From: an uncultured Clostridia bacterium
Lineage (GTDB): Bacteria > Bacillota > Clostridia > TANB77 > CAG-508
Reading direction: 5' to 3'
Assembly: GCA_944386655.1 (NCBI GenBank)
Contig: CALXBX010000009.1
Span: forward strand, 67,833 to 131,832
DNA length: 64,000 nucleotides
Made by a program: the position numbers and the translations under genes. This document shows, in pieces, positions 14,375 through 16,105 of the stretch. The notes beneath the pieces were generated by a model. It was not told the origin of the DNA, ran no database searches, and worked only from the letters and a program-made list of their open reading frames with translations. How positions within the stretch are numbered: position 1 is the stretch's first letter; each line of letters starts with the position of its first letter.

Positions 14375-16105
14375 ATGAGAAATTTTGTAAAGAAACAAAC
14401 AGGTATTACCTTGATAGCACTTGTCGTAACTATAATAGTCCTAATTATTCTAGCCGGTGTTTCTATAGCAATGCTAGTTGGAGAAAATGGTATTATTACA
14501 CAGGCACAAAGGGCAGCACAAGAAACAGAGCAAGCAAAAAGAGACGAAGAAGCAGGACTATCTAGTTTAGAAACAGCCATACAAGAAGCTTTAGGAAATG
14601 TGTACAATGAAGAAAAAGGAGTAAATGCCCCAAGACTAACTGCAGGAATGACACCAATTAAATTCACAGACCCAACCGATTCAGCAAAAGGAACTGTAGT
14701 AGAAACAACAAGTGAGGATGCAGAATGGTATGAATATGGAACAGAAGAAGGTAAAAAGAAATGGGCAAATGCACAAACGGAAGATGGAAGTATGTGGGTA
14801 TGGATACCAAGATTTGCTTACAGAGTAGATAACACAAATAAAACATTTGATATTGTATTTTTAGTAGGAACCACAGACCAATATTATGATGAAAACGGCG
14901 TATTGCAAACAGCCAAACGTTGCACAAGTGAAGATGAGCTAGTGGACACTACAACAGGATATACCGTACACCCAGCCTTTACAGATGAAACAGCAATCAA
15001 TTACAGAAATGGAGGCTGGGATAAAGAGATAACAGGAATCTGGGTAGCTAAATTTGAAGCAGGCTATGCAGGAGGAAATAACACAGCAACAGCAGTAGCA
15101 AGTAATGTAAATTATACACAAACAAATGCATGGGTACCAGACGTAGAAACAGGAGAAACGACAACAAATAATGGAGCAAGTAAACCAGCAAGAAACTGGC
15201 TAGATGGGGAATACGGAAGTAACACAACTGCAATCAAATATCCCGTATTCCAACCAGTAACTTATACCATGAATTATATTAATCATAACGATGCCTACAA
15301 TATCGCTAAGGCACTAAGTTCCAATGGAAACCCATATGGCTTTAATGGAGCAGCTGATAGTCATTTAATGAAAAATAGTGAATGGGGAGCAGTAGCATAC
15401 CTTTCTAAGAGTGAATATGGATTAGGAGCAACGGATATAACGGTAAATAATATTAGTTTAAATAATTCTACACAAAGTGTATATGCCGTAACAGGATGTA
15501 CGAGCAATAGTACATCAGCAACCACCAGAACCACAACCATAGCTACCATAAATGGAACAACCGGAAACACAGCAAATGGAGGTGTATATACTTGGGAACA
15601 ATTAACAGGAACAACAGCAAGTAGCACAGGAAGTATTTATGGAATATATGACTTAAGCGGTGGAGCATGGGAAAGAACAACAGGGTATGTAGCAAATCAA
15701 AATAGTTACTTAAGTACTTATGGAAGAAGTATAGCTTATGATGGAAATAATCTAAGAACAATTAGTACCAAATATACAACTGTATATCCACATAATAGCG
15801 AAACAGATAAACCGGGAATTACAGATGTTGCCAACGATAGTACAAACTTAAATATAGCAGGTAATAATAACTATGCACTAAATACATTAATTTACGGAGA
15901 TGCCATCCGAGAAACATCTACGGCTGGAACCGGCAACAACTCATGGTATGACGACGCCTCTTACTTCCCTGGGCTTAACTCTCCGTTCTCTATCCGTGGT
16001 GGTGGGTCCCACGATGGTTCAACTGCCGGTCTGTTCTATTTCTATCGTAATGGTGGGAATAGCTTTTATAGCGGTGGCTTCCGTGCGGTCGTGGTCGTGT
16101 CGTAG
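14375..16105 (+). CDS. large type IV pilin-like protein with C-terminal FGE-sulfatase-like domain
   Basis: RBS ggagg; N-terminus MRNFVKKQTG/ITLIALVVTIIVLIILAGVSIAMLVGENGIITQAQRA (paralog family). C-terminus …SPFSIRGGGSHDGSTAGLFYFYRNGGNSFYSGGFRAVVVVS matches FGE-sulfatase (RGGS…YR…GFR) motifs. The last ~70 codons are GC-rich. Confidence 0.7.
   Translation: MRNFVKKQTGITLIALVVTIIVLIILAGVSIAMLVGENGIITQAQRAAQETEQAKRDEEAGLSSLETAIQEALGNVYNEEKGVNAPRLTAGMTPIKFTDPTDSAKGTVVETTSEDAEWYEYGTEEGKKKWANAQTEDGSMWVWIPRFAYRVDNTNKTFDIVFLVGTTDQYYDENGVLQTAKRCTSEDELVDTTTGYTVHPAFTDETAINYRNGGWDKEITGIWVAKFEAGYAGGNNTATAVASNVNYTQTNAWVPDVETGETTTNNGASKPARNWLDGEYGSNTTAIKYPVFQPVTYTMNYINHNDAYNIAKALSSNGNPYGFNGAADSHLMKNSEWGAVAYLSKSEYGLGATDITVNNISLNNSTQSVYAVTGCTSNSTSATTRTTTIATINGTTGNTANGGVYTWEQLTGTTASSTGSIYGIYDLSGGAWERTTGYVANQNSYLSTYGRSIAYDGNNLRTISTKYTTVYPHNSETDKPGITDVANDSTNLNIAGNNNYALNTLIYGDAIRETSTAGTGNNSWYDDASYFPGLNSPFSIRGGGSHDGSTAGLFYFYRNGGNSFYSGGFRAVVVVS

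Follow-up and report, generated by a model that had tools for sequence, protein, structure and literature searches.

A probable diversity-generating retroelement-type variable protein with a pilin-like N-terminus in an uncultured Clostridia bacterium

Among the targets of diversity-generating retroelements (DGRs), CLec1 domains of the formylglycine-generating enzyme (FGE) type form the largest class, and in Treponema denticola seven targets are scattered over the genome (PMC5758913). The majority of cellular targets begin with a transmembrane (TM) segment or a signal peptide and are taken for proteins anchored in the membrane that bind extracellular ligands, cells or phages at the surface (PMC8144416), and a GspG-type pilin domain is one of the rare domains that hold the variable region (VR) of a DGR target (PMC11661182). 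On the side of the pilins, modular architectures that combine IPR012902 with an FGE domain (IPR012902-IPR005532, 8 proteins) or with GLUG repeats (IPR012902-IPR011493, 6 proteins) are listed in Dataset S1 of Raynaud et al. 2021 (PMC8179133). The gene described here lies at 14375-16105 of a 64-kb stretch of DNA from an uncultured Clostridia bacterium (contig CALXBX010000009.1), hereafter the window, which has about 31% GC and nearly all of its genes on the + strand. Its product is, with a probability of roughly 0.8, a cell-surface ligand-binding DGR variable protein of the CLec1 / FGE-sulfatase type, like TvpA of T. denticola and TaqVP of Thermus aquaticus; it is a new member of this known class that carries a pilin-like anchor, and not a new class of pilin.

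The features of the gene, with positions counted in the window, are the following.

14375-16105, + strand: surface-protein gene, an open reading frame (ORF) of 576 aa with a pilin-like N-terminal segment, a putative FGE-type C-type-lectin domain and a C-terminal DGR-type VR.
14295-14367, + strand: TTGACA at 14295, a likely -35 promoter box, and GAGAGGAG at 14360-14367, a likely ribosome-binding site, both read from the sequence.
14375-14404, + strand: basic leader MRNFVKKQTG, whose final Gly (G10) may precede a class III (prepilin-type) cleavage site, from the alignment of paralogues.
14405-14479, + strand: hydrophobic helix ITLIALVVTIIVLIILAGVSIAMLV, alpha1N-like, with Ala at +5, from N_methyl scores and pilin similarity.
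14480-14600, + strand: conserved GENGIITQAQRA motif (from the consensus), followed by a charged helical linker whose helix is predicted with low confidence.
14693-15957, + strand: divergent FGE-sulfatase / C-type-lectin body with the ordered motifs DGSMWVWIPR, GIWVAKFEAG, HLMKNSEWGAVAYL and GIYDLSGGAWE.
15958-16105, + strand: DGR-type VR, GC-rich and A-poor, with hypervariable NNY codons at residues 528-567.
16076-16109, + strand: GC-rich 3' end GGCTTCCGTGCGGTCGTGGTCGTGTCGTAGCACT, which spans the stop codon and resembles an initiation of mutagenic homing (IMH) element, a function that it may have.
16158-16193, + strand: 15-bp perfect hairpin 3' of the gene (folding z-score -3.56), which could be a terminator or a DGR-associated hairpin.

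An alternative TTG start at 14339 would extend the protein from the 576 aa given by the ATG at 14375 to 588 aa, and the exact sequence from either start corresponds to no database record. Homologues are abundant, with more than 7000 matches, most of them unnamed and the few named ones mostly 'hypothetical'. Relatives of the window come from metagenome-assembled genomes (MAGs) of uncultured gut Clostridia, including Clostridium sp. CAG:389 and UMGS1663, and contigs of the same species were found in several ENA gut metagenome assemblies. The comparisons below use 77 loci that encode homologues of the protein (designated by an L and a number, as are the other contigs compared; the related loci total 1.1 Mb) and an alignment of 57 homologues with 62-89% identity.

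Four of the 77 homologue loci (L006, L013, L031 and L042) carry, 1-2 kb downstream of the homologue, a reverse transcriptase (RT) with IGNYTSQ and YMDD motifs. Each of the four also has a pair of repeats of 155-160 nt that are 89-92% identical, one being the 3' end of the homologue gene, the VR, and the other the template repeat (TR), 190-320 nt beyond. The mismatches fall at adenines of the TR in 12 of 13 cases in L006, 14 of 14 in L013, 17 of 18 in L031 and 11 of 15 in L042, and the TR encodes the peptide YSY(Y/F)PGLNNPFSIRGGNLWNGSNAGLFYFNRNNGNSNYNNGFR. The cassette of L006 was confirmed by profile searches: its RT scores 67 bits on RVT_1, and for its Avd the values are 82.7 bits with NF033474 (cut-off 80) and 72.7 bits with Pfam bAvd. 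Within this cassette (L006 11913-14293) TR and VR lie on one strand, RT and Avd on the other, and an ORF of 169 aa that holds MutS domain I only adjoins avd, in both respects unlike the TvpA/TaqVP class.

One of the TRs has several partners. The TR of L042, in the MAG CAKOXK, matches five VRs on four contigs, with mismatches at its adenines in 11 of 15 positions for L042, 11 of 13 and 20 of 28 for the two copies in L047, 14 of 18 for L074 and 14 of 21 for L046, so that one element serves several dispersed paralogues in trans. In all four cassettes VR and TR are nearly identical over a stretch that ends in ...TAG(C/T)ACT and diverge beyond it, and the segment at 16076-16109 is read as a candidate IMH because it is the counterpart of that stretch.

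The copy in the window has the same kind of 3' end. Positions 15958-16120 align to the TRs of the four cassettes at 62-72% identity, and the last 150 nt of the gene, with 54% GC, coincide in part with the 150-nt stretch that is richest in GC in all of the 64 kb (53%, against a mean of 31.6% and a standard deviation of 4.6), while the 3' ends of the paralogues at 3707, 16479, 48177 and 55763 are not GC-rich. This VR contains 17 A in 145 nt and encodes SYFPGLNSPFSIRGGGSHDGSTAGLFYFYRNGGNSFYSGGFR, which differs from the peptide encoded by the L006 TR at 11 positions, nine of them at TR Asn codons; its variable codons end in C or T with one exception. The compositional and codon signature of a DGR VR, A-depleted and GC-rich with NNY at fixed positions in an invariant scaffold, is thus present. 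Across the 57 homologues mean pairwise identity falls from 0.72 in the core to 0.53 at residues 528-571, where fifteen positions hold 8-16 residue types each (mostly N, S, Y, G, D, H and T) and the Gly, Phe and Arg residues around them are invariant. Also among homologues at 82-89% identity no part of the protein varies more than the VR, and in the closest relatives the DNA scaffold and the IMH-like end of the VR are kept, the changes being in the first two bases of the variable codons. The original prediction had taken the terminal RGG...YR...GFR of this protein for an FGE-sulfatase signature; the residues are there, but they form the scaffold of a DGR variable region, which that reading had missed and which would make the gene one for a DGR-type variable protein.

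The putative fold of the C-terminal domain was approached through the paralogue at 48177, whose AlphaFold model has a predicted local distance difference test (pLDDT) of 85.8, with values above 90 over most of residues 71-320. The two structures that it matches best are those of TaqVP and TvpA, DGR variable proteins without enzymatic function, a result that led to the search for DGR components. A profile built from 22 diverse C-domains of the 14375 family and run against 177,635 PDB sequences retrieved only TaqVP (5vf4, E 0.018) and SUMF2 (1y4j, E 0.056), the matches falling on the HLMKNSEWGAVAYL and GIYDLSGGxWE motifs. Moreover, the motifs DGxxWVWIP, GxW(V/I)xKFEAG, SEWG, IYD(L/M)xGG..E, RGG and GFR follow one another in the same order in the 14375 and 48177 families.

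FGE, SUMF2, EgtB and OvoA share the fold of the 48177 model, and the 48177 protein barely passes the Pfam FGE-sulfatase model (PF03781, 23.7 bits against a cut-off of 23.3); precomputed PF03781 annotation is found on 10 of 120 of its homologues among the matches listed. Hence the C-domain might be thought a catalytic member of the family, a formylglycine-generating or sulfoxide-synthase-like enzyme at the surface, and not a binder. This is very improbable, since the closest structures are those of non-enzymatic proteins and the part that would form the binding face is hypervariable, as no fixed active site could be. In TvpA the FGE motif is present without FGE activity (PMC5758913), and no sulfatase genes were noticed in the window. 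As for the FGE-sulfatase domain that had been assigned to both proteins, it stands for the 48177 protein, if only just above the Pfam cut-off, and finds no Pfam match in the 14375 protein.

With the C-domain thus read as that of a DGR variable protein, several results have to be set on the other side and weigh against this reading. No FGE-sulfatase match is returned for the 14375 protein by Pfam or NCBIfam, nor for any of the 57 homologues by Pfam (0/57). AlphaFold models of the C-domains had been proposed as a check; that of 48177 resembles FGE and CLec proteins, as described above, and that of the 14375 protein, made with the 57-sequence alignment, has a pLDDT of 40 and is unusable. Profile-profile similarity between the C-domains of the two families is weak, with an hhalign probability of 37% for a colinear match of the trimmed domains; when the full-length alignments were used, hhalign matched the N-termini alone. 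A repeat search and a sensitive blastn search with the VR and with foreign TRs found no TR in the 64-kb window, none of the paralogue 3' ends having a direct repeat as its partner, and no RT was found in the window (motif scan, and RVT_1 on unassigned ORFs) or in about 10 kb past its right end. Scans of metagenome contigs with the predicted TR, having AAY at the variable codons, and with the IMH gave 0 matches to a cognate TR, so that the lineage is apparently absent from that collection. The gene was also recovered from other samples of the species, complete in L085 and L092 and as its last 1275 nt in L093; its VR is identical in these and in the window, while each differs from the window by 4-5 single-nucleotide polymorphisms elsewhere in the gene, which gives no sign of ongoing diversification in the strain. 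Finally, we infer the surface location and the binding of a ligand, as well as the present activity or inactivity of the DGR, and the first two of these belong among the points against.

The VR of the window copy therefore looks static in this strain and, with no TR or RT within 64 kb, the copy would be a remote target with rare rewriting, or else a former one that is now frozen. If it is a live remote target, a TR should exist that matches 15958-16109 except at adenines, with AAY at codons 528-567 and ending ...GTCGTAGCACT.

The nearest kind of described protein is the CLec1/FGE DGR variable protein (category 'b' of Wu et al. 2018, PMC5758913), represented by TvpA (2Y3C) and TaqVP (5VF4). The 14375 family shares with it a VR in the last 45-50 codons or so that ends in ...GFR, the conversion of AAY in the TR to NNY in the VR, a putative IMH at the stop codon, homologues that adjoin TR, Avd and RT, and the use of one TR by dispersed paralogues, as in T. 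denticola. It differs in that the window copy is without TR or RT in its 64 kb and has an unchanging VR, in a lectin domain that for 14375 has long insertions rich in Thr and Asn, reaches about double the usual size and is missed by Pfam, in a pilin-like helix at the N-terminus in place of a lipoprotein or Sec signal, and in an unusually high paralogy, with at least 17 loci in one MAG and at least 9 in another.

The proposed way of working follows this class. The basic leader and the alpha1N-like helix of about 25 residues would place the protein in or on the membrane, and the charged helical stalk would carry a large, insertion-rich C-type-lectin fold whose ligand-binding face is presumably encoded by the last 48 codons or so. 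The VR would be written by mutagenic retrohoming, in which RT and Avd copy the TR while its AAY (Asn) codons are misread at the adenines, and the resulting cDNA would replace the VR up to the GC-rich IMH at the stop codon. The expected outcome is NNY codons at about 15 fixed positions within a scaffold in which G552, F554, F556, G561 and G568-F569-R570 stay invariant. The gene is one of many dispersed paralogues, of which several are served in trans by a single DGR in related genomes.

The N-terminal segment is shared with four other genes of the window.

3707-4463, + strand: split paralogue with Ser at +5, divided by a 1-nt frameshift into 3707-4237 and 4185-4463.
16479-17314, + strand: disrupted GLUG paralogue, made up of a 63-aa N-terminal ORF that ends in two stops and a 206-aa ORF with three GLUG repeats (16694-17314) in another frame.
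48177-49382, + strand: paralogue with the shared N-terminus and a compact FGE-type lectin domain, between secY and adk.
55763-56953, + strand: paralogue with the shared N-terminus and a C-domain without assignment, directly downstream of rplQ.

All five (3707, 14375, 16479, 48177 and 55763), as had been predicted, begin with a K/R-rich leader that ends in Gly, followed by ITLIALVVTIIVLIILAGVSI..VG(D/E)NGI. The description of this N-terminus as an invariant 40-aa block went too far: 24 of about 70 columns of the five-paralogue alignment are invariant, among them G(-1), I+1, T+2, I+4 and L+6, and the 3707 protein deviates at several positions (ITMISLAVT...GVTINTLVG), the other copies being 52-63% identical to it over about 70 aligned residues. 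Past residue 60-140 or so BLASTP finds no relatedness among the five proteins. Recent gene conversion was considered as the source of the N-terminal identity and rejected, as the DNA of the paralogues differs at synonymous third positions, and the conservation is accordingly attributed to purifying selection on the peptide.

The layout of the segment fits a class III signal, with a K/R-rich leader of 6-10 residues, Gly at -1, Thr at +2, Leu at +6 and about 22 hydrophobic residues. Canonical type IV pilins carry Glu at +5. The family is unlike them in this respect, and the absence of Glu+5 noted in the original prediction extends well beyond the window: the +5 residue is Ala in the 14375, 16479, 48177 and 55763 proteins and Ser in 3707, and in 110 N-termini of the family from the window and the loci it is A in 92, S in 8, V in 5, T in 4 and I in 1, with Glu in 0/110. 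No test supported the further description of the segment as archaeal-pilin-like. With the Pfam N_methyl model (PF07963, cut-off 21.2 bits) the scores are 21.3 for 55763, 19.8 for 48177, 17.4 for 16479 and 10.9 for 14375, with no match for 3707; the model is matched by 30 of the 57 homologues of the 14375 protein and by 23 of 150 relatives of the N-terminal module. The NCBIfam model TIGR02532 gives no match to the window paralogues at E <= 1. In the PDB the family profile resembles only the N-terminal sequences of MshA and geopilin, with E of about 0.4, and one homologue of the 14375 protein bears the NCBI name 'type II secretion system protein'.

The distribution search that had been suggested for this N-terminus showed how widely it is used. 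Of 1.84 billion cluster representatives, a profile of the five N-termini matches 30,306 with E <= 1e-3, and 18,222 of them still with E <= 1e-10. In the best 150 representatives the match starts within the first 20 residues in all but one, G(-1) is kept in at least 90%, and the domains that follow are GH5 cellulase (6), DUF285 (5), GDSL lipase (5), GLUG (4), FGE-sulfatase (3), LRR_5 (2), F5/8 type C (2) and others. Its presence on more than 30,000 clusters with such diverse enzyme and binding domains points to a module for surface display in general. The segment thus reads as a general surface-targeting or anchoring device of the clade that resembles a class III signal, and it is probably derived from a pilin. 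In archaea, class III signals are found on non-pilin proteins, such as the sugar-binding proteins of the Sulfolobus 'bindosome', for which PibD-dependent processing has been demonstrated. The present family is like the bindosome in that a pilin-type signal serves as a general device to place diverse proteins on the surface, and unlike it in being bacterial, in having another consensus at the cleavage site and in being known from sequences alone.

Two views of how this N-terminus works have to be weighed. The first takes the proteins for true modular type IV (or Tad/Flp-type) pilins, in which a prepilin peptidase would cut after the Gly, the alpha1N helix would sit at the tip of a filament and the lectin or enzyme would be displayed on the pilus. 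It is compatible with the DGR reading, as it concerns the working of the N-terminus only. The filament machine might be the adjacent Tad-like locus (17438-29424), and for a subunit at the tip the lack of Glu+5 would be fitting. This view is a tentative one that we hold to be rather doubtful. It is helped by the class III layout, by N_methyl scores at or near the cut-off, by the fact that pilin N-termini are the only similarity in the PDB and by the 'type II secretion system' name of the homologue mentioned above. Purifying selection on the same peptide ahead of unrelated C-domains suggests a conserved partner. Furthermore, pilins with FGE and GLUG modules have been catalogued (PMC8179133), and the family resembles the modular type IV pilins PilB and PilC of Streptococcus sanguinis (PMC8179133) in having a short pilin-type motif followed by a module unrelated to pilus biology. 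In the light of that 2021 catalogue the earlier statement that pilin-FGE fusions are uncharacterised holds for experiments and not for the architectures themselves.

Other evidence runs against modular pilins. Glu+5 is missing in 110 of 110 N-termini of the family and TIGR02532 does not match. Unlike S. sanguinis PilB, in which the grafted domain comes after a small but complete pilin module, the 14375 family has the alpha1N-like helix alone: no globular pilin module is seen behind the helix in the models of the 14375 (pLDDT 40) and 48177 proteins, and in the latter the N-terminal helices (residues 8-70, low pLDDT) run straight into the lectin domain, so that in place of an alpha-beta module the helix is broken at VGENG and followed by stalk and lectin. 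No E-Y of the Tad/Flp motif G/xxxxEY follows the Gly in the five N-termini of the window. A prepilin peptidase motif (A24, G.GD.K, in ORFs of at least 120 aa) was found neither in the window nor in the 1.1 Mb of related loci, which is a weak test, and, again unlike modular pilins, no dedicated type IV pilus machinery or prepilin peptidase was found near the family genes of the window. A module carried by more than 30,000 clusters, cellulases and lipases included, is explained at least as well by a general anchor. The major or tip pilins of the original prediction therefore found no backing, given the missing globular module, the missing peptidase motif and a Tad-like linkage that is absent in other species.

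The second view is that of an uncleaved signal-anchor: a type II TM helix inserted by Sec/YidC would tether the extracytoplasmic domains, the resemblance to pilins being ancestral or convergent and no filament being formed. We regard this as quite possible, if somewhat short of an even chance. A hydrophobic stretch of about 25 residues is long enough to span a membrane, the basic leader would mark the cytoplasmic side, and a site for signal peptidase I is not conserved, the candidate -1 residue being A, N or Q depending on the paralogue. That neither Glu+5 nor a pilin globular module nor a peptidase was found, and that the module precedes GH5, GDSL lipase, DUF285, GLUG, FGE and LRR_5 domains in the best 150 representatives, speaks for it too. 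A TM segment or a signal peptide at the N-terminus is also what cellular DGR targets generally possess (PMC8144416), and the 14375 protein resembles the membrane-anchored ones of Roux et al. 2021 (PMC8144416) in joining such an N-terminus to a C-terminal CLec VR. Against it, a plain anchor needs no invariant G(-1), T+2, L+6 and GxNGI across tens of thousands of proteins, and the match to pilin N-termini, though weak, is the only similarity found. The family departs from what that DGR survey describes, as the word 'pilin' occurs 0 times in its text, and the N-terminal peptide motif of the 14375 family is in no indexed paper. The Glu5-less pilin-like N-terminus is a well-defined candidate, open to testing, for a hitherto undescribed signal that targets proteins to the surface in uncultured Firmicutes, and its processing is the most interesting point raised by these proteins.

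Returning to the gene as one for a DGR-type surface lectin, its neighbourhood bears mainly on the modular pilins. The locus at 17438-29424 has its genes in tad order, with a SAF/CpaB-like protein, two ParA/TadZ-like proteins, a CpaF-like ATPase, a 693-aa platform protein, four small pseudopilin-like proteins and a 547-aa TadG-like protein, and is almost invisible to Pfam. The four small proteins start with MENASKAL(I/L)MAG and a hydrophobic helix, with no Gly cleavage site. In the window two family members stand directly upstream of this operon, at the 'flp position', and in all strains of this species the place just before the SAF gene is taken by a family member, though not by the same one from strain to strain, which favours the pilin view. 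Between the AAA_14/DUF4143 gene and the Tad-like locus, where the window has 14375-17314, L089 holds a 378-aa FGE protein (6866-8002) whose first 55 residues are those of the 14375 protein, and L091 (604-1899) an intact 431-aa GLUG protein. Different members in one slot behind the same N-terminus suggest that C-domains are swapped behind a constant N-terminal segment.

This linkage is local and not conserved, since Tad-like genes adjoin 0 of the 77 homologue loci and in another species (L095) the Tad-like locus comes directly after cdaA-truA-DUF2651, with no family member upstream; a conserved functional link between the family and the Tad-like locus is unsupported outside this species. A further point against the pilin view is the CpaF-like ATPase (20037-22008), which has a 1-nt shift within Walker A (GEQG|AGKTT) at about 21176-21178. 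Repair of the shift yields a match to PDB 8rkd with an E of 3e-10 and 25.3 bits for T2SSE. The split into 424 and 234 aa is common to the four other samples of the species in which the gene was seen whole, and the relatives have it intact at 636-660 aa. It is intact and 85-95% identical in 120 of 120 relatives among the matches listed, which makes it far more conserved than the surface proteins. The split gene may be either a fixed pseudogene or subject to programmed frameshifting.

The disrupted paralogue at 16479 presents a similar picture. Compared with the intact 431-aa GLUG orthologue of L091 it has an out-of-frame internal deletion of about 150 codons, and the split recurs in 4 other samples. 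Sequencing error was rejected as the cause of both this split and that of the ATPase, independent assemblies having the same ORF structure. The predicted fusion of this N-terminus to GLUG repeats is thus real in relatives, as in L091, and disrupted in the window, where it lies in two ORFs in different frames.

The paralogues at 48177 and 55763 are associated with housekeeping genes, the window containing the S10-spc-alpha ribosomal protein region with secY, adk, rpoA and rplQ; family members are inserted within the ribosomal-protein / secY-adk / rpoA-rplQ cluster or at its end, at 48177-50010 and 55763-56953. Further samples of the species, and also the MAG of L038, keep a family gene after rplQ. 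The 48177 family has a hypervariable C-terminus overall, and the window copy has E, K, L and M there, from which its former VR appears decayed. A 23-nt palindrome, ACTTTRGGGACGTTCCYTAAAGT, occurs in seven copies against 0 expected, all of them intergenic (8873, 29425, 29535 on the - strand, 47998, 48046, 50168 on the - strand, and 55568). Oppositely oriented copies flank the two-gene insertion 48177-50010 between secY and adk, and one copy lies between rplQ and the 55763 gene.

A much broader picture can be drawn for the small-genome gut Clostridia of the clade around Clostridium sp. CAG:389 and CAG:780, in which the Glu5-less, pilin-derived module of more than 30,000 clusters would be the usual way to the surface, processed and displayed by a type IV filament-like machine, possibly the extremely conserved Tad-like system, with C-domains swapped and a single DGR rewriting dispersed lectin paralogues, a programmable adhesin repertoire on pili; we consider it unlikely. 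As DGR-type variable proteins in the first place, these findings would correct the annotation of a large and almost wholly unnamed family (more than 7000 matches) to that of DGR-type hypervariable surface lectins. The strong expansion of the family in gut Clostridia with small genomes points to diversity of ligand recognition (host glycans, cells or phages) as a major investment. Since the Pfam FGE-sulfatase model misses the 14375-type family, surveys of DGR targets that rely on Pfam could under-count such genes.

Some further observations concern the surroundings. Upstream, at 7020-12731, lies a cluster of genes for surface proteins with cohesin, dockerin, Big_2, cadherin-like and SH3_3 domains, in which ORF 8198-8866 corresponds to a gene with a Sortase domain in the orthologous locus L089. 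This cluster is within a segment of about 10 kb that separates DUF2651 from the Tad-like locus and is absent in the other species (L095). Four tandem copies of a 23-nt unit (..AAAAATCACGGAATG..) at 12745-12835 stand just upstream of the AAA_14/DUF4143 ATPase gene (12889-14169). Beyond the Tad-like locus, at 29570-30899, SpoIVB (Peptidase_S55 and PDZ) is split by a 1-nt indel into ORFs of 150 and 287 aa. Most of the homologues matched by the 14375 protein are on contigs of 2-5 kb, and in L080 and many others the contig ends at or just past the gene, which fits assembly breaks at hypervariable or paralogous VRs.

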